Part shown: positions 21,061 to 57,202 of the stretch, one piece after another
Numbering within the stretch: position 1 is the first letter of the stretch
Layout: each line of letters begins with the position of its first letter
Program-made: the position numbers and the translations under genes
Source of the DNA: Vairimorpha necatrix
Lineage: Eukaryota
Assembly (NCBI GenBank): GCA_036630325.1
Contig: CP142734.1
Span: forward strand, 496,001 to 560,000
Reading direction: 5' to 3'
DNA: 64,000 nucleotides
Notes under the pieces: model-generated
Databases searched by the model: none
Seen by the model: only the letters and a program-made list of their open reading frames with translations
What the model was told of the DNA's origin: nothing

Positions 21061-21831
21061 AATAAAATAAATCACAAAATATGGATAAATGAAAATTTTA
21101 TATTAGATTAAATATTGTTATTTTTCCTCCATATAGATTTTTTATATAAATTTCTAATTCGCATATTATCATAGTAGCTATACGGCGAAATACCGATTAT
21201 GTTGAATGATAAGTTTGACAACCAATAGTAAGAAATTACACCTTGTTCTCATTATATGTATAATATATGTGATTAGATCATTCACTTAACTCAAAGTAAT
21301 AAAGACTTACAATCTCTCTTCAATTTTCACTTTATCCGTATTTTATACATCTCGTAAATTATGTTATAAACATTCTCTAGTTTTTATTATATTCTCAAAC
21401 AATCATCATCTTTTTGTTGGTGTTATTACACAACCTATAAAAATAATCTTGGTTTTGATTTTATTATCAAGTCAGAGTATCTAAAGATCACAATATCATG
21501 ATATTTAACATGTATGAGATACTTATTTATAAAAATAAGCTAGTGCGACAAATTTATTTTAAATAAATATGGACCACTTATTTATACACGTAATCTTGTG
21601 CAACAAGATATAAAAGTAGTTATATCTTCCTTTTTTGACTTTATAATATCATACAAATACATTTTACACGTGTTACTATGACATATAAAAAACAAATTTT
21701 TATTTTTTTTTTAATAATAATCAAACATGTCTAAAAATATAATAAAGTATCAAATAACAAGTATTTTCATTCAGTAATATTTTTTTTTAATATAATATTA
21801 TTTTTTTATAACTCGTTATCTTTATTACCCC

Positions 21832-22377
21832 ATGCTGATATATTTTGTCACTTCAAGTTTCTTAAAATTCAAAGAAGTAGTCGACAATTACAACTTAAAC
21901 TTCTCTCAATTAAACATTCCTCTTACAGAAATCCAAGGTACTCAAGACCAAATAGCTCTCCATAAACTTAAAACTGCTTGTCAAATATATCCCGATAAAT
22001 GGATAATGGTCGACGATACAAGTATAGAAATAATAGCTTTAAACGGGTTCCCTGGTCCGTATGGTAAAGATTTTTTAAGTATTGGTATTGATTGTATAGA
22101 AAATTTAGTATCAAAAATAGGTAGAGATACAAAATTAAGTTGTGTTATAGGATTAGGTAATGAAAAGTTAAAAATTTTTAAATTGTTTAATGGAAATTTA
22201 AAAGGGAAAATTGTTAAAAGAGAAAAAAATGAATATTGTGAGTTTGATGGGTTTTTTGTACCTGATGGGTTTGATATTCCGTATAGTGATTTATCAAATG
22301 ATGTGAAGAGATTGATTAGTCATAGAGGAATGGCTATGAGGAAAATGGAGATGTATATTAAAGAGAAAGAATTTTAA
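21832..22377 (+). CDS. HAM1: Inosine triphosphate pyrophosphatase (Ham1/ITPase)
   Basis: FVTSS..K, EIQG, VDDTS, LNGFPGPYGK and SHRG motifs. CCCC-ATG. Confidence 0.95.
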   Translation: MLIYFVTSSFLKFKEVVDNYNLNFSQLNIPLTEIQGTQDQIALHKLKTACQIYPDKWIMVDDTSIEIIALNGFPGPYGKDFLSIGIDCIENLVSKIGRDTKLSCVIGLGNEKLKIFKLFNGNLKGKIVKREKNEYCEFDGFFVPDGFDIPYSDLSNDVKRLISHRGMAMRKMEMYIKEKEF

Positions 22378-22928
22378 TTTATCAATTCAATAAAATATGT
22401 CTTTGATTAAATGTGTAATATTCATAGATAAGAAAAGTAAATTTCTCGTGTACGAAGACTATAAATAAATGTAGAGTATTTTATAAGTCTGACTGTTCTT
22501 ATATTTATAAGAAAATGTTCTGAGTTTTTATACTCAGTTTACTATTTCTTTTGTAATTATAGTACATATTTTTAAAACATTACTGTAAAATGTCAGAAGA
22601 TTAATGATCTCAAGTATAAACTCTAGACCACCCGATCTTCTATGGATTTCTCTTTCTGGAATCCACACCATAAATATTTATGATATTACTTAAGAAAGAT
22701 GGGGGTAAAAAAAAGGGAAATATTTATACTATAAAATTTTTATAATATTTGTAATATTTATAATATATTTGTATCTATAATATTTATGCTATAATTATTT
22801 ACAGATGTATTGTACAAAATTATAAATCTTGACATATCAAATAAAATTATAAATCTTGACATGTCAAATATTTACTTACAGCAAATATTATAAATATTTT
22901 TTTAAAATTCATGTTTATTTTTTTTTCC

Positions 22929-25121
22929 TCATATTTTAGTAAATCCCTTCTTTATTTCTTGTACTACTTCACTATTAACACAAGTACTTAAATCTTCACT
23001 CACTTTCCCCAATATTATATCTCTCAATACTCTTCTCATTATCTTCCCAGTAGCAGTCTTCGGTAAACTTCTACATATATAAATATTCTTAGGATGTACT
23101 AATCTCCCTATTTTATTCCTTAGAGTATTCCTTACAGATTTAGTGACTATTTCTTCTTCTACTTCTCTTTTTAGTACTATGAAGATATTTATAGCCTGCC
23201 CTGTGATCTCGTCATCTACAGAGACGACAGCAGATTCGGCGACATGTTTGTCGCCGCATACAGCGCTTTCTAATTCTGCAGTACTTAGACGATGCCCTGA
23301 TACATTTATGACGTCATCTGCTCTACCTCTGATCCAAATGAGACCATCTGAATCTTTATAACCTTCATCACCTGTGAAATAACAGTCTTTATAACAGAAG
23401 TATGAGTTTAAGTATCTTTTTCTATCATTTAAGACACCTCTTGAGATACCAGGCCAAGATTTCTTAATTACCACATGACCCAATTCAAATGGATCTGTTT
23501 CCACTAAATCAACATGATCTATTTCAATTGTATTAGATCTACTAGTAGTAGTATCATAATTATTAATATTTGCAGTATCTACCAAACTATTACTAACATT
23601 ATCTTGAACACCAACATAGATATGTCTATCTATGTTGGTGTTATTGGGCTTTATTATTGATACTTCTATCCCATAAAATGGTAAAGATGCACACTCTGGT
23701 TGCCCTATCACTGTATTAGGCAAGGGTGCTATCATTATCCCTCCTGTCTCAGTCTGCCAATATGTATCAACAATATGTAAATTATTAAATGCCTCTGTAA
23801 ACCATTTATAAGCTTCTTTATTTATTGGCTCCCCTACTGATCCCAGTAGTCTTAAACTTGATAAATCATATTTCTTCTCCATTTTATTAGTACTAAAGTA
23901 CTTCTGTAATGTCCTTACTACTGTAGGGGCAGTATAAAGTTGAGTAATTTTTAATTTATCTACTAGTAGAAAGAGACGGTAATAATCAGGGTATACTGGT
24001 GTACCACCAAATAAGACAGTAGTAATACCATTTAGTAGTGGACCATAGAATGAGTAAGTGTGTCCTGTAATCCAGCCTATATCTGCAGTACATGCGAAGA
24101 TGTCATTTTCTTTTAAGTTGAAACATTCTCTAGTAGTTAAGGCTGCGTAGACTAGAAATCCGCCTGTTGTGTGGATCATCCCTTTTGGTTTACCAGTGGA
24201 TCCACTTGTGTACAAGTAGAAGAGAATGTCTTCTGAGTCGACACTCACAGGATCTACAAATTTAGAAGGTAAGTTCTTTACATCTGACCAATAGATGACA
24301 TTTACACCAATATCCACTAAATTTACAATATTATCTTTAGTATTTTCAAAATCGAATATAAGAATGTCTTTTACTTTACTATCAAAATTAGTATATACTG
24401 TATTATCTACTTTATTATCTATTGTATTATCAATATTAGTAGATACTGTATAATCTAATGTATTATTATCAATTTTAGTAGATACTGTATAATCTAATGT
24501 ATTATTATCAATTTTAGTATTGTTTATGAGACTTTCTTGTACTACTCTTTGGAAATTTATCTCGGTTTTTCCTCGCTTAATGACGTCACATGTTATTACA
24601 TATTTACTCTTAGAATCTTCTATCCTCACTCTCAAACTTCTACTACTAAACCCTCCAAACACTACATTGTGTACAATCCCAAGTCGAGTACAAGCCAGTG
24701 CACTGAACACTGCCTCAGGACACATAGGCATATAAATAGTGACACAGTCTCCTTTATTTAATTTATCTTTTAGTACACTAGATATCTTACATATAATATC
24801 TAGTGACTGTTTATAAGTATACTCTGTGATCTGGTTATCATTATCAGTGTAGATTATGGCTACTTTATTGGGATATTTAGAGACATGTCTGTCTATACAA
24901 TTGTAACAAGCATTAAGTTTCCCATTAGTGAACCATTTAGAATTAGAGAAGTCATTATTGAAGACTTCAGAGAAATCTTTAGACCAGGAGATGAGTTTAG
25001 CCTTTTCTGACCAGTACTGTGAATTATGACTTATAGATTTCTTATATTCTTTTTCATAAATATATGTATTCATGGATGTATTATCATTTATGGATGTATT
25101 CATGGATTTATCTGTATTCAT
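22929..25121 (-). CDS. ACS: Acetyl-CoA synthetase (AMP-forming)
   Basis: YTSGSTGKPKG, ADIGWITGH, DTYWQTETGG, GRADDVINVSGHRL and LPKTATGKIMRR motifs. Confidence 0.97.
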   Translation of the reverse strand: MNTDKSMNTSINDNTSMNTYIYEKEYKKSISHNSQYWSEKAKLISWSKDFSEVFNNDFSNSKWFTNGKLNACYNCIDRHVSKYPNKVAIIYTDNDNQITEYTYKQSLDIICKISSVLKDKLNKGDCVTIYMPMCPEAVFSALACTRLGIVHNVVFGGFSSRSLRVRIEDSKSKYVITCDVIKRGKTEINFQRVVQESLINNTKIDNNTLDYTVSTKIDNNTLDYTVSTNIDNTIDNKVDNTVYTNFDSKVKDILIFDFENTKDNIVNLVDIGVNVIYWSDVKNLPSKFVDPVSVDSEDILFYLYTSGSTGKPKGMIHTTGGFLVYAALTTRECFNLKENDIFACTADIGWITGHTYSFYGPLLNGITTVLFGGTPVYPDYYRLFLLVDKLKITQLYTAPTVVRTLQKYFSTNKMEKKYDLSSLRLLGSVGEPINKEAYKWFTEAFNNLHIVDTYWQTETGGIMIAPLPNTVIGQPECASLPFYGIEVSIIKPNNTNIDRHIYVGVQDNVSNSLVDTANINNYDTTTSRSNTIEIDHVDLVETDPFELGHVVIKKSWPGISRGVLNDRKRYLNSYFCYKDCYFTGDEGYKDSDGLIWIRGRADDVINVSGHRLSTAELESAVCGDKHVAESAVVSVDDEITGQAINIFIVLKREVEEEIVTKSVRNTLRNKIGRLVHPKNIYICRSLPKTATGKIMRRVLRDIILGKVSEDLSTCVNSEVVQEIKKGFTKI

Positions 25122-25584
25122 TATTAAGGGGAAATATTAATTTATTTATATTTACACTAACCAATCATATAATAATAAATAATAAATAAAAATATTATAG
25201 ATATATTTTAGATATTATAGTATGTCTTTTGATAAATTAATTTCCCTGAATTTTTAATTGACAAATGAAATTTGATCAAAAAGAGAAGTTTGATGTCTCT
25301 CTAGATCTTAGACATGATTTGTCTAAGAGAAATGATTTGTCTAGATCTAGAGAGACATGATTTGTCTAGTTAGATCATGATTTGGTTACCAGAAGGAGAG
25401 TTAGTCAAATTCAAGATGAACTATGTTCAATTAATTATTTCATTATTCATGCTATTTTTAAAAATGAAAAATATTTAAATAAAAATGCATAAATGCATAA
25501 ATAAAATATATCTTAATATTATAAAATATATAATATATAATATATCTTTTATACTATAATGATAAGTTTCTTACCCTTAGTTTT

Positions 25585-25896
25585 ATGTTCAAAATTGAGT
25601 ATCTTCCTGGCGCCTCTAAGATTCAGAATATTAATGGTATTTATAAATGTTTTGCTTATGAAGATGGGTTTATAGACCCAAATAAGGGCGGCCTGATCAG
25701 CGTGGGCTTCAAGATGCAAGTCACTAAGGAGTATTTTATTTATGTGTTCAGTACTAAATATCATGGCCTAGGGGGAGTGGGGGACTCAGACTACAGGGGA
25801 ATATTCAATATAATAGTATTTAATAATACAGAAGAAGTAATAAAGTATAAGAAAGGGGAGTATGTAGGGAATATATCAATTATAAGAATAAACTAA
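25585..25896 (+). CDS. Short, degenerate dUTPase-like protein
   Basis: Motif III-like GGVGDSDYRG and KKGEYVGNI (cf. GDRIAQL). CCC upstream of the ATG. Motifs I, II and V not recognisable. Confidence 0.75.
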   Translation: MFKIEYLPGASKIQNINGIYKCFAYEDGFIDPNKGGLISVGFKMQVTKEYFIYVFSTKYHGLGGVGDSDYRGIFNIIVFNNTEEVIKYKKGEYVGNISIIRIN

Positions 25897-26050
25897 ATAA
25901 TTAAATATTAATAATGTATTTAATGTATTTGATAATATTGTATTATTATATAATGTATTATGTAAGTATATTATAATAAATCTAATAAATCTTATAAATC
26001 TAATAAATCTTATTTAATTATTAGATTTATTTGTTTATCTTTGTTATCCC

Positions 26051-26227
26051 ATGACGAGTACTCAAACTCAGACACTCAAGTCTCTCGCTCTAGTAAAAAG
26101 AAAGAGTGTCTCCTTCTCTCAAGACACAGTGGACAATGAGCACATGAATAAGAAGAAGAGTAAGATATGCTGCATATTCCACATGAAGAATGAGAAGAAA
26201 GATAAGAATAAATATGAGAGATATTAA
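26051..26227 (+). CDS. YPI1: Protein phosphatase 1 inhibitor Ypi1 / Inhibitor-3 (PPP1R11), 58 aa, absent from the ORF track
   Basis: [50 protein letters not shown] contains an RVxF-type motif (KSVSF) and the VDNEHM.KKKSK.CCI signature. Confidence 0.92.
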
Positions 26228-26251
26228 AATTTACCCTTCATTTTCCAGATT

Positions 26252-51653: not shown

Positions 51654-52329
51654 GGTACCTTTAATATTTTTTTCAAGAAGAAATAAAAATTATTCCTCTT
51701 TTTTATATATTAATTTTCTAAAATTTTTTATGTTCATTTTAGGGGCGTAATTTTATTCCTTTTTTATTTTTCCCTTTTTTTATTTTTCCCCCTTTTTTTT
51801 ATTTTTTTAGGGGGGGGGGGGGGGTAACATCGCAATTTAACCTTAAAAGGTTAAATTGCGATGTTACTGGTCAAGAATGAAGGAACAGATAACTAAAACT
51901 TTAAAAATTCTGGAGTATTTAATATTAATAACAGAAAAACGACCCTTAGATGCAATTTTGTAACAACATTTAGAAATCGGCGAAAGTAGCTTTAGACATA
52001 ATGAATATTGGAGAAAAGAAAGATACGTACTATTAGGGATTGACTACTTTACGAGAAGAGTATGGAACGCAAAGATAGAAAATAAGAGAAGTGATGGTAT
52101 TATAAAAATTTTAGAAAATGTATAAATGAAGAAGGATTCCTTGATGATTTTTTATGGATAACTGTAAGGTATTTTTTTGTGAGAAATTTGTAATTTGGTG
52201 TAACGAAAACGGAATTATGCAACGGAAAGTAGGTCTAGAAGCTCATAGAGGCAATGGAAGAATAGAACGATGTATTAGAACAATAAGGGAATCCATGATC
52301 AAACAAAAAGAAGGGGAATCATAGGAAAA

Positions 52330-52402
52330 GGTGCCCTTGGCCCAGCGGTTGAAGGCAATACTTTCATTGAGCAGTGGCTAAGTTCGATTCCCAGGGGCAC
52401 CA
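52330..52402 (+). ncRNA. tRNA-derived head with Pol III A and B boxes (not a convincing functional tRNA)
   Basis: Acceptor-like GGTGCCC...GGGCACCA, A box TGGCCCAGCGG and B box GTTCGATTCC. Anticodon and T stems pair poorly. Confidence 0.7.
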
Positions 52403-53096
52403 AAATTGTTTCTACTTTCTATGATGTAGTTGGAACAACTCAGATGATGAAAATGTCCACGATAATCATTAGGTTGATTCAATGAAACTTGTGTGTATCC
52501 AGCCACAAGGGGATTAGCACCTAGTGTAGAAACGCACCTCGAAGCCAAAAAGCAGTATCACCCTTTGGTGACTTAATGATACATAAAAGTATCTAATGGG
52601 TACGGCCTAGTTGGTGCCCATGGCTGGTGCACTCTAGAGTAGGATCCTAGAGCTAACTAAGAGACTAGACGAAGTAGGGCAATAGAAGGTCTCGTGGACC
52701 CTATCCTACAAGATTCTGTAACACGGTGGCCGAAACTAGTGGGAGACTAGTGGTCAACGCAGCCCTATAAAAATGCCGGGCTGGTGATGTGATCGTGTAA
52801 GGAGCCGTGTGTGCAATACAGATGATTGTAGAGACCTTTGAGTCAGTAAGATGATGTCTCTCCTCGGGTTATAGATAACCATGCTCGTTAAGTATATTCG
52901 CTTTGAGGTAGAAATGGAAAGTGTTCTCCTGGAGCCAAAGTCCAATGAATACGGCGGAGCTTGCTGCACCGGCAAGTTGTATGGAAGGAGTTTTAGCGAG
53001 TAAGAATCTCACAGTACCAGTTGGATGGGGATCACACCCAAATTCCTCTGGTTCCTATGTAAGGTTTCTCCCCACCTCTTATAAGCAAGGGGAAAA
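52330..53096 (+). mobile_element. tRNA-headed SINE-like element, apparently full length (~770 bp)
   Basis: tRNA-like 5' head, GC-richer noncoding body and short A end. 13-bp TSD AATCATAGGAAAA at 52317-52329 and 53097-53109. Second copy at 42.8 kb. Confidence 0.85.
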
Positions 53097-54144
53097 AATC
53101 ATAGGAAAACTAAAACAAGTTGTAAAAACTTTTAATAACACCTACACACAATTATAAAATATACACCAATGTAAGGACCAAGGAAAAGAAGTTTTTATGG
53201 AAAACGATGAAAAGAGGGTGTATGAAAGTAAGTTTAACAAAGGCATAGAGAAAATTTTTGAGTATATCGGGTTGTAAGAATCGTAAGAAGTCAAAACTTG
53301 GTTAAGAAGATGAAAGGATTTTAACAAGTTTTGATAAAATAATTTGAAATATGAGAGAGATTCTTATTTTGTAAGGACTGATAGCGGGTTGTACATTAAG
53401 AAACGATATTATGACTCAAAAAAGATATAAAATGGAAAAATAGAAGCTTATAGCGTGAGACTACCTGTTTGAAGGGGAGTGAAGGCTGAACCCTCATTAA
53501 ATACATGTATAACATATAATCGTGAAAGACGAAGATGACAACCTTATACATCCAATTCTTTGTTATTAATAGCAGTAAAGTCATTTTATCGTATATTTTA
53601 ATAATCAAAACCTCACTAAGTATTGTACATGTTTATCTCAATATTATTTATATGTACTAACTTCACTTGCATAGATTTATATAGATTTTTTATCTATTAC
53701 AATATACTATAAATATTTATAATATGCTACCAAAATAACTATATAAAGCGGTACTTATTTATTTATTCCAGTTTTATTTTTGCAATTTGTGCATGGAACA
53801 CCGAAACATCGTAATTAATCATGTTTCCAATGAATGTGTTACCACAAACAAATACATTTTCCAAAAAAAACTTTTTTATATACGTATATATCAATAGCGT
53901 CTTCCGTGTCTCATTTCTCTTTTCGGATCTTGGAGCCACTTATTTTACATTTTGATTATTTAGCATATTCATTAATATTTCATGATTTCTCTTACATTTT
54001 GTCTTAAAAACATCTTCAAAAAATGATAGAATTTTTTAATTTATCCACAATCTAAATTTTGTATAAAAATTTGAATTAAGACTTTCCTAATGCTTGTGAG
54101 AACTTAAATAGCAATTATGGCTTCTATAACGTAGATAATTTTCT

Positions 54145-54329: not shown

Positions 54330-55397
54330 CTAAACCCTACATCCCCCCTCCAGACGGGTAGTCTCTCCATCTTCTAAACAACTCTTCCTTATCTCTTTCA
54401 AATCATAATGCCTCTTTTTAACAATTTTACCATCCAGTAGTCTCACAATATATGAATCATTTTCACTTATAGCTACGATCCTTCCGCGACCCGTGAATCT
54501 TCCCTTGTCTGTTTTCGCACGTGTACCTAAATTTTCTCTCCTAGCGATTCTTACCTCTTGGCCTACTGTAAATGTCTCTCTGTGTCTTCTCTTGAACCGA
54601 CCAGCATATTTTCCATTTTCATCATTTTCAATTATAACTTCAGCAGTTTGATCTCTCCACGCTTCCATCGGCGTACATTTTATTGCTGTATGTAGTGTAT
54701 TATTATATCCTTTGATTGCTCTTTCTATCTTTTCAGAAATATTCCCATCATTTTGCTTTATCAATGTCTCTCTTATAGTTCTGATGCATCTCTCGATTCT
54801 ACCATTACTCCTATGAGCTTCTAAGCCCATTTTCCTATGTTTAATATCATTAATACTACACCATTCTTTAAATCTATTACTTACAAACTCTTTTCCGTTG
54901 TCTGTCACATATTCCTCTGGAAATCCATCTTCCCTTATCCACTTTTGTAATACCTCTATAACTTCACTACTCTCTTTACATCTCAAATTCGAACCCCACA
55001 ACCTTCTAGTAAAGTAATCAATACCCAGTAACACATACCTATTCTCTCCACCTATGTCCATTAAATCCAACGCCACTTTCTCCAATTTCTTTCTAGTTAC
55101 TACGAAATCACATCCTCCTGTGTTTTTCCTATTGTTAATCCCACATATTTCACAATTCTTAATTACCTTATTAATATGATCTTTCATACCAGGCCAATAC
55201 CATCTTTGTTTAATGTTATAATAAGTGCCTTTGACACCTCTATGGTTTAACTCCTCATGTACTCTTGTTATTTCATGTTCTCTACTATCTAGGCTCAATA
55301 TCTCTTTCACCTCACCTGTTGAAAATTCCCAATACTGTTTACCGTCCTTTTCTTTAATATGTTTCTGCTTTTTTCCCAAAATTTGTTTTTCGATCAC
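54330..55397 (-). CDS. Integrase portion of the polyprotein
   Basis: HEELNH..CEIC, LDLMD, TDNGKEF and SNGRIER motifs. The stop lies inside the 3' LTR. Confidence 0.9.
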   Translation of the reverse strand: MIEKQILGKKQKHIKEKDGKQYWEFSTGEVKEILSLDSREHEITRVHEELNHRGVKGTYYNIKQRWYWPGMKDHINKVIKNCEICGINNRKNTGGCDFVVTRKKLEKVALDLMDIGGENRYVLLGIDYFTRRLWGSNLRCKESSEVIEVLQKWIREDGFPEEYVTDNGKEFVSNRFKEWCSINDIKHRKMGLEAHRSNGRIERCIRTIRETLIKQNDGNISEKIERAIKGYNNTLHTAIKCTPMEAWRDQTAEVIIENDENGKYAGRFKRRHRETFTVGQEVRIARRENLGTRAKTDKGRFTGRGRIVAISENDSYIVRLLDGKIVKKRHYDLKEIRKSCLEDGETTRLEGGCRV

Positions 55398-55441
55398 TTC
55401 TTTTCTCTTGTTGTCCTTTTCTTTTTGTTCATCCGAAACTT

Positions 55442-57202
55442 CTACCTATCATACTGCCTACTTAACGCATCTGCATCTGTCATCAACTCCCCTTTCACAT
55501 ACTCTATTGTAAAGTCAAACTCTTGTATCTGTTCTACCCATATGTTTATTCTGTTATTATTGAAGTATGGCTTATTTCTGATCTCTACTAATGCTTTATG
55601 ATCCGTCATCAAATGAAATTTCCTTCCTCTCAAATCACTTTCAAACTTCTTTATTCCAAAAAACACCGCCAACATCTCCTTCTCACTTATCGTATATCTT
55701 CGCTCGGTAGGAGTCAACATTTTCGATGCCCATTGTATCGGAATCCACTCACCCTCTTTATTTTCTTGTAATAGAATTGCTCCGATCCCCGTATCACACG
55801 CATCAGTTCTTACTCTAAATAGCTTTTTTCCGTCCGGAATCTTCAACTTTTTCATATCTCTCAAGCCTTGCTTCATATCCTCAAAAGCTCTTTCCATATC
55901 CTCCGTCCAATTCCACTTAACATCTTTCTTTAAAGCCTCAGTAAGCCTTACTGTTCTATACGCATAGTTGGGAATAAAGTCTCTAAACCAACCAGTTAGT
56001 CCTAAAAATCTTCTTAACTCTCTAACATTCTCAGGTTTTCTATATTCCAATGTCTCCTGCTTTTTAATCTCATTCGGTCCCATGACCTCCCCATTAATTG
56101 TTACTCCCAGCAACATCACCTCATCTTTTTTGTATTGTATCTTTGTTTGGTTTATTCTCAACCCACACTCTTTAAACTTCTTAATTACCCTCTCTAGTAA
56201 CTCGTCATGCACTCTTACGTCTTTACCATGAATAACTATATCATCCATATATACTTCCACGCCTTTACCTCTGAATTCATCTAAAACTCTGTTCATTACT
56301 CTCTGCATTATATGAGGCGAATTCTTAAACCCCATAACCATACTATTCCATTCGTATACTCGACCATTCACTTCAAATGCTGTTTTGTGCTTATGGTTCT
56401 CCTCAATCTCAATATGATAAAACCCTTCTTTTAAGTCGATAACCGTAAATACTTTTGACCCCTGTGTGGCTCTCAAAATATCCTTAATTAACGGTAGTGA
56501 GTACGGGTCCTTGTCAACCAAATCGTTTAACGCCATCAAATTGCTTACCAATCTTACGTCCCCATTTGGTTTTTCAAGTGCTCTTATTGGACTCCTCCAC
56601 TCACTTTTGGAACGTCTTATAACCCCTCTATTTTCCAACTTATTCAAGTACTCCTCAAATTTCACCCTAAGGTAGTATGGCACATTCTGCCCTCTTTTCA
56701 CAACCTTTTCACCTTGCTTAGTATTTATTGGACACTTCTCTCCTGTGAGATATTTTATCTTTTCTTCTGATTCTTTAAAAACTTCCGGATACTTTTCAAT
56801 TAAATTTTCTAACTTATTTACTGTTTTACATCTTTTCCCTTCATTGTTGATAATTGGTTCTTTCTGTAAAACTTGTTCCTTTTTAATTTTATATTTTTCC
56901 CTGCCAGCTACACTTTCATGACATTCTCTAGCGTAATGCCCTTCTTTCTTACATATAAAACATTTTGTAGTTTCTCTGATTTCTCTTCTTTTCCTATACA
57001 TCCTAAGATTTTCTTTTCTTTCTTCCCTAAACTCTTTCAACACTTTATCCATAATCTCTTTAATCATTTCTTGTCTTTCTTCTGACTCTCTCTCAAATTC
57101 TGCTCCTTTTTGTAAGCCTTTATAAATTTCCTCCCAACTGCTCCTTCCGTCACAAAAATTTTCAAAAATATAATCCTGCAAGTTCGCAGATGCCAAATCC
57201 AT
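55442..57202 (-). CDS. gag(NC)-RT-RNase H portion of the polyprotein, bounded by apparent 1-nt frameshifts
   Basis: CFICKKEGHYAREC, IDLKEGF, YMDD, TDACDTGIGAIL and DADALSR motifs. Confidence 0.9.
   Translation of the reverse strand: MDLASANLQDYIFENFCDGRSSWEEIYKGLQKGAEFERESEERQEMIKEIMDKVLKEFREERKENLRMYRKRREIRETTKCFICKKEGHYARECHESVAGREKYKIKKEQVLQKEPIINNEGKRCKTVNKLENLIEKYPEVFKESEEKIKYLTGEKCPINTKQGEKVVKRGQNVPYYLRVKFEEYLNKLENRGVIRRSKSEWRSPIRALEKPNGDVRLVSNLMALNDLVDKDPYSLPLIKDILRATQGSKVFTVIDLKEGFYHIEIEENHKHKTAFEVNGRVYEWNSMVMGFKNSPHIMQRVMNRVLDEFRGKGVEVYMDDIVIHGKDVRVHDELLERVIKKFKECGLRINQTKIQYKKDEVMLLGVTINGEVMGPNEIKKQETLEYRKPENVRELRRFLGLTGWFRDFIPNYAYRTVRLTEALKKDVKWNWTEDMERAFEDMKQGLRDMKKLKIPDGKKLFRVRTDACDTGIGAILLQENKEGEWIPIQWASKMLTPTERRYTISEKEMLAVFFGIKKFESDLRGRKFHLMTDHKALVEIRNKPYFNNNRINIWVEQIQEFDFTIEYVKGELMTDADALSRQYDR

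Follow-up and report, generated by a model that had tools for sequence, protein, structure and literature searches.

The window analysed here, a stretch of 64,000 nucleotides of Vairimorpha necatrix contig CP142734.1, carries at positions 52330 to 53096 an insert that is a member of a real, recently active family of tRNA-derived SINEs, a conclusion of which we are nearly certain. It is quite probable that these SINEs owe their mobility, in trans, to a LINE of the APE-RT type with one ORF and a poly(A) tail, through a signal that the two elements share in their 3′ regions.

The insert is 767 nt long and is framed by a 13-mer, AATCATAGGAAAA, that occurs exactly twice within the window, at 52317–52329 and 53097–53109; the first two A's of this 13-mer may equally be part of the SINE tail. 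Both flanks of the insert match, collinearly, the intact integrase at 54333–55445. Since stops and frameshifts are found in both flanks, the interrupted host gene is a dead integrase. The preliminary description of this DNA, which reported an insert of about 770 bp with a 13-bp target-site duplication in a dead integrase gene, is thus confirmed by the exact pair of 13-mers and the collinear integrase halves. That account also had the insert beginning with a 73-nt tRNA-like head and consisting of GC-richer non-coding DNA. Both points hold: ARAGORN calls a single tRNA in the window, tRNA-Met(CAT) at 52330–52402, and the insert has 45.9% GC, compared with 19–37% for the remaining 1-kb bins of the window, and contains no long ORF. 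In two young copies of the SINE, the longest ATG-started frame is 29–52 aa. The features are as follows.

51850..52316, plus strand: dead gypsy-type integrase, left part (interrupted), matching residues 78–243 of the intact integrase.
52317..52329, plus strand: 13-bp target-site duplication, 5′ copy (exact repeat).
52330..52402, plus strand: tRNA-derived head, in which the 7-bp acceptor stem is intact, the anticodon position reads CAT and the anticodon loop is degenerate.
52338..52348, plus strand: TGGCCCAGCGG, which we take to be the A box.
52381..52391, plus strand: B box, AGTTCGATTCC (GGTTCGATTCC in most family copies).
52403..52924, plus strand: non-coding body; the window copy is missing 22 nt of the consensus near 52902.
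52706..52850, plus strand: central block, the best conserved part between the young family and an old lineage of about 70% identity.
52925..53019, plus strand: LINE-derived block; the homologous stretch of a poly(A)-tailed APE-RT LINE runs from the last 16 codons through the stop into the beginning of the 3′ UTR.
53020..53089, plus strand: terminal segment of about 70 nt, weakly similar to the LINE terminus, with a similar predicted stem and a pyrimidine-rich end.
53090..53096, plus strand: decayed A tail, GGGAAAA (about 8–26 A in young copies).
53097..53109, plus strand: 13-bp target-site duplication, 3′ copy (exact repeat).
53110..53427, plus strand: dead gypsy-type integrase, right part, matching residues 239–352 of the intact integrase.
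42751..42846, minus strand: 5′-truncated copy of the same SINE, consisting of the last ~85 nt and poly(A), with its own target duplication of about 18 bp.

Of 30 copies compared, none has diverged further from the consensus than the window copy (94.7% identity); it is an older, decaying member of the family that landed in a gypsy integrase. The surroundings hold other elements and genes. Ends of Merlin/IS1595-like DNA transposons, a G-run followed by GTAACATCGCAATTTAACC, lie at 46640–46960 and 51780–51870, and two of them form a 48-nt palindrome at 51822–51869, adjoining the dead integrase. A housekeeping cluster at 21796–30179 (Ham1, acetyl-CoA synthetase, glycerol-3-phosphate dehydrogenase, phosphomannomutase and thymidylate kinase) sits among at least four gypsy elements.

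The genome searched comprises 15.0 Mb in 12 contigs; it is microsporidian, one of its LINE proteins being identical to a database entry labelled Vairimorpha necatrix. With the best 40 of 329 candidates scored, a DNA search gave at least 41 matches over 600 nt, the window copy included. Pattern counts gave 58 exact head–body junctions of one type (A1), 20 of a second type (A2) among 41 rows, and 146 SINE 3′ ends with at most one mismatch, for which reversed-pattern controls gave none. The family has at least 78 head-bearing copies. These are about 790 nt long (767–795 nt) and poly(A)-tailed; all 30 fetched copies start with GGTGCC and end with CAAG or CAAAG followed by the A tail, and 27 of them have target duplications of 11–17 bp. 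In a wider set of 43 copies, duplications of 10–18 bp are present in 33 (mode 14, one probably spurious), insertions carry 0–3 extra 5′ bases, and there is no clear target motif. The mean pairwise identity of the 30 fetched copies is 96.7%. Subfamily A1 is 1.46% diverged from its own consensus (n = 15) and subfamily A2 only 0.28% (n = 14); the two differ at 14 of 74 head positions and at 10 of about 715 body positions. Old copies, of 68–85% identity, are also present. The tRNA head, the poly(A) tail, target duplications of variable length, 5′-truncated copies and many dispersed copies place the insert in a SINE family, as had been proposed.

Several loci have unusual arrangements. Old copies of about 70% identity (L141–L145) form part of a larger repeated unit, in which sequence like the 3′ UTR of a T-tailed LINE lies downstream of them; L035 is a chimera of a young 5′ part and an old 3′ part; and at L033 (C9:791338-792947) a young copy is inserted into the B box of an older one. 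At L032 (C6:347804-347967), two extra heads of 82 nt stand in tandem before one SINE copy, and so head swapping by template switch may be possible.

The head carries A and B boxes and has a tRNA-like fold; in the youngest subfamily its best fold is a rod. ARAGORN reads 30 of 30 heads as tRNA-Met(CAT), one of them below the default threshold, and among 10 selected heads the acceptor stem shows no variation while one D-stem pair switches between A-U and C-G. These features would suit a reading in which the copies are working tRNA-Met genes that carry a long trailer, or else retropseudogenes of a host non-coding RNA, which we nevertheless hold to be extremely improbable. The head scores 27.3 bits against the Rfam tRNA model, below the cut-off of 29, whereas host tRNAs (63 matches) score 54–75 bits. 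Ordinary Met genes, both initiator and elongator, are present in the host and agree with the SINE head at only 33–36 of 74 positions; the nearest of 50 distinct host tRNA sequences is a tRNA-Ala, with 45–46 of 74, and tRNA-Met is ruled out as the head's parent by this comparison. The parent tRNA is therefore not fixed, Ala being merely the nearest and Met far. In addition, the anticodon arm differs between subfamilies, no terminator follows the head, and the copies have a LINE-derived tail. As members of a SINE family, they can inflate counts of tRNA-Met genes, because ARAGORN calls every head a tRNA.

Two features of the copies bear against a Pol III step in their mobility. In an older lineage (L345, L346 and L354), the head has lost the 3′ acceptor strand and the greater part of the B box; this deletion is common to two independent older insertions, the third site being a segmental duplicate, and therefore counts against strict dependence on Pol III. 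The second feature is a T4 run inside the element: 29 of 30 copies have one near nt 683, and for some host tRNA genes the only adjoining run is a T4. No T5 run occurs in the SINE, but 72% of shuffles also have none, so that this absence is not significant.

The possibility that tRNA-processing enzymes cut off the head ahead of copying was considered and rejected, as none of 41 junctions, checked by eye with a pattern that misses sites with A at the first position, starts cleanly at nt 74 with an unrelated flank. In the body, 52611–52624 is a near-copy of the first 12 nt of the head; in the window copy it complements the 3′ acceptor strand along 13 nt (the consensus has one mismatch more) and could give an alternative pairing with that strand. 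Elsewhere, at L223 (C1:1431973-1432076), there is an intron-containing tRNA that ARAGORN labels, possibly wrongly, Leu(aag).

What, then, is the machinery that copies this SINE? Three families of non-LTR elements were found in the genome: a T-tailed two-ORF APE LINE, a second family that we take from its motifs to be of the RLE type, and a rare A-tailed LINE with APE, RT and CCHC domains. The last, at C6:721057-724439, has a single ORF, a poly(A) end and 45.5% GC. The preliminary description had suggested comparing the 3′ end with LINE 3′ UTRs. SINE nt 618–711 and the end of the A-tailed LINE are identical at 76 of 96 nt (E 5e-18), and their alignment scores 82, compared with 25 for the best of 30 shuffles; the T-tailed LINE and the RLE element score 25 and 24, the level of shuffles, and are rejected as sources of the tail. 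The shared block consists of the last 16 codons of the LINE and the start of its 3′ UTR. In the frame of the LINE, the SINE block reads FSWSQSPMDTAELAAP, which is identical at 13 of 16 residues to the C terminus of a full-length relative of 1465 aa from a V. ceranae cluster. A similar C-terminal word, defined by a regular expression, is carried by 9 of 120 LINE homologues, and three more distant ones carry, by eye, the second half of the block, one with 9 of 12 residues identical (pairwise E 0.001). These words suggest that a signal is conserved at the nucleotide level in the LINE clade. It is likely that the LINE-derived block serves as a recognition signal for the reverse transcriptase, and we think it probable, judging from these alignments, that the A-tailed APE-RT family is the driver of the SINE.

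Some of the evidence runs the other way. The last ~70 nt of the SINE and of the A-tailed LINE align weakly, and the covariation of the shared block does not exceed that of shuffles; its score is lowered by three old-lineage rows that are one base out of register in the first columns. By eye, TCC-AAT-GGA and CTC-AAT-GAG in the shared tail are compensatory, but RNAalifold does not recover the stem. Among the best candidates scored in this assembly there is no intact A-tailed LINE, yet subfamily A2 has diverged by so little. The best copy is truncated by 379 of 1465 residues at its N-terminal end, so that the endonuclease lacks its start; the others among the scored candidates are one long decayed copy and short 3′ fragments, and the missing 5′ part was not found in the neighbouring loci examined. 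An ESM Atlas search returned generic RT clusters only.

Given this, it could be asked whether the SINE is now copied, with relaxed recognition, by the T-tailed two-ORF APE LINE or the RLE element, its LINE-derived tail being a relic. The lack of an intact A-tailed LINE among the candidates scored argues for it, as do the facts that 11 of 20 endonuclease matches are within the 1242-codon open frame of the T-tailed LINE and that the duplications of the latter are, by eye, of similar length (14–15 bp). We consider this reading unlikely. The similarity of the T-tailed LINE to the SINE is not above shuffles, its copies end in T-rich tails without poly(A), and a non-autonomous partner that shares the 3′ end of this LINE exists already. 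Moreover, no other part of subfamily A1 has mutated as little as the shared block (0.8%, with 1.2–2.4% elsewhere, although the numbers are small).

The other retroelements can be described briefly. The T-tailed APE LINE is abundant (L106 43-5810, L110, L111 and L115; contigs C6, C7, C4 and C3), with an ORF1 of about 560 aa that has no Pfam match and an ORF2 of 1242 aa; it starts almost at the ATG, has a T-rich tail after AATAAA, and is often self-inserted. Its non-autonomous partner, of about 400–480 nt, occurs in tandem arrays (L115 5865-6815; L106 6280-7110; L122 1430-2165) and has a long hairpin near the 5′ end, no tRNA head and no Rfam match. At L170 2420-6019 (C10) there is a single-ORF RT element of 1199 aa with many decayed relatives and, presumably, a C-terminal restriction-like endonuclease motif. 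At L122 290-1400 (C6), what we take to be sequence like large-subunit rDNA adjoins a 24-kb LINE nest that contains the partner LINE.

Returning to the A-tailed LINE as driver, a pathway can be proposed from the SINE anatomy, the dispersed copies with their duplications, the 5′ truncation, the recent spread and the 3′ homology to one LINE family only; the polymerase, the binding step and the driver are inferred, on the model of stringent SINE/LINE pairs as treated in parts of PMC1636434 and PMC3747384. Transcription by Pol III would start from the internal A and B boxes, pass through both the T4 near nt 683 and the templated A tail, and halt in a T run of the flanking DNA. The LINE protein would bind to the LINE-derived block of ~95 nt, and its endonuclease would nick AT-rich DNA with little sequence preference. 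Reverse transcription would be primed within the A tail. The duplication would arise from a second nick some 14 bp off, often with 0–3 extra 5′ bases.

There remains the long body between the head and the LINE-derived block. Ribozyme-bearing retroelements include retrozymes, and R2-type elements have an HDV-like ribozyme. The preliminary description had named three hairpins and suggested a captured ribozyme or other structured RNA. The hairpins are present in the sequence, but they are no evidence of a structured body, and the perfect ACTAGT/ACTAGT arm of one is peculiar to the window copy, the family consensus being ACTGGT. It is very unlikely, in our view, that the body is a captured ribozyme or other large folded RNA required for mobility. 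No Rfam ribozyme or large RNA matches the window copy up to E 1 or a young copy up to E 10; hammerhead, HDV-like and other self-cleaving Rfam families, which cover known motifs, have no match in the SINE. The best Rfam match in the body, R2_retro_el, is sub-threshold (E 0.079) and is treated as chance, and the end of the partner LINE likewise gives sub-threshold matches only. Windows of 100 nt on the sense strand have folding z values from −1.65 to +1.55. The whole body folds slightly better than shuffles in two tests, with z of −1.46 (2 of 20 shuffles) and −1.78 (0 of 20), which favours a folded body. So does the conservation of the central block across old lineages and, in part, in the contigs of another organism: the region of about nt 401–520 is the best conserved against the lineage of ~70% identity, with 68–82% per 40 nt against mostly 40–72% elsewhere. 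The block has a compatible consensus fold in which 90% of cells are paired, but among its 27 pairs a single one shows a double change, and the covariation score is reached by 390 of 500 shuffles. Furthermore, SINE copies start at the tRNA head, for which self-cleavage is not needed. Outside the 3′ block, the body has no match to the coding region of the partner LINE, whose 5′ end is missing.

It is tempting to read these parts jointly, as a modular SINE with a fast-changing or swappable head, a folded core of ~135 nt and a LINE RNA signal common to the clade, but this is rather doubtful. If true, the tRNA head would keep a perfect stack of acceptor and T arms, and the element would be under unusual selection; the central domain would be a conserved folded RNA of cellular origin; and the LINE signal, overlapping the end of the ORF, would be conserved in the clade, with traces in relatives of 32–42% identity. 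The family would then be a microsporidian counterpart of the conserved-core SINE superfamilies, still spreading on a very rare partner.

Sampled words of the SINE are present in 20 of 24 listed sequencing runs (18 studies), with half or more of the words in three. Contigs of four runs were compared in detail, the matched pieces being selected for likeness. In RNA run X19, two contigs match four blocks of the SINE with the spacing kept (174 against 177 nt and 76 against 77 nt) and carry 54 of 54 nt of the LINE-shared block; a third, of 1005 nt, shares 45 of 47 nt of that block and has LINE-like flanks. Therefore, a diverged SINE and its LINE seem to co-occur in another sample. These are contigs that may include DNA, and we do not infer transcription from them. 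A long motif had no match in metagenomes; a shorter one had 118, which we attribute to chance because none has further similarity and only three are able to form the hairpin. No relatives were found in the viral contigs or the phages searched.

In the literature searched, we found no description of a microsporidian SINE family; Repbase, Dfam, the supplementary libraries of genome papers and subscription journals may hold an automatic consensus. "SINE" does not occur in the main text of PMC7313128, PMC4202319, PMC12449221 and PMC10133504, nor in that of PMC10759460 (as the start of a word) and PMC8206274 (in the singular). The relevant passage of PMC11585130 gives SINEs as absent in its species, a figure in PMC13702014 has SINE as a plot category, and SINEs are mentioned only generally in a passage of PMC6416283. 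PMC8010984, in the passages, one section and part of the supplements covered, does not mention microsporidia and has no matching tail motif.

The family is apparently new, ordinary in kind and previously uncharacterised in microsporidia. For microsporidia, which serve as models of genome reduction, the literature searched yielded neither a SINE family nor a SINE/LINE pair that had been characterised. This young family, whose full-length copies number about 80 and by our own arithmetic make up roughly 0.4% of the genome, may represent a Pol III-type parasite RNA that is still spreading. Its insertions are markers for strains, and the shared block is a concrete candidate recognition signal for an uncharacterised LINE lineage. 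The concept of SINEs is unchanged by it.

As for known systems, one table row of PMC3614468 gives an unspecified "SINE" category at 0.18% of the genome of Nosema bombycis. The likeness is that of SINE-class repeats in a related microsporidian, and the main text of that paper gives no family, sequence or partner. The preliminary description had considered the length of the insert unusual for a SINE. This does not hold, because fungal SINEs listed in part of PMC5063351, which include Foxy, span 472–900 bp (MgSINE 472 bp, Egr1 700 bp, mgsr1 800 bp and EGH24 900 bp). They resemble the present family in length range and copy number (about 40–160), a comparison made by description only; the V. necatrix family differs in being microsporidian and in having a true poly(A) tail. 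The fungal SINE/LINE pairs described in a section of PMC3747384, Mg-SINE with MgL/MGR583 in Magnaporthe and SINE2-1_BG with Tad1-24_BG in Blumeria, have a similar tRNA head, non-coding body and 3′ region from a resident LINE. Likened again by description only, they belong to another host group, and the V. necatrix partner is a single-ORF APE-RT-CCHC element. In the eel, UnaL2 and its partner SINE share a 3′ tail, proposed in a passage of PMC1636434 as the handle for the reverse transcriptase, and the silkworm SART1, which part of PMC3747384 describes as a poly(A)-tailed stringent LINE, indicates that a poly(A) tail is compatible with stringent recognition. Unlike in UnaL2 and SART1, the best-shared block in V. 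necatrix lies 70–165 nt away from the terminus, and it extends over the final 16 codons of the LINE ORF.
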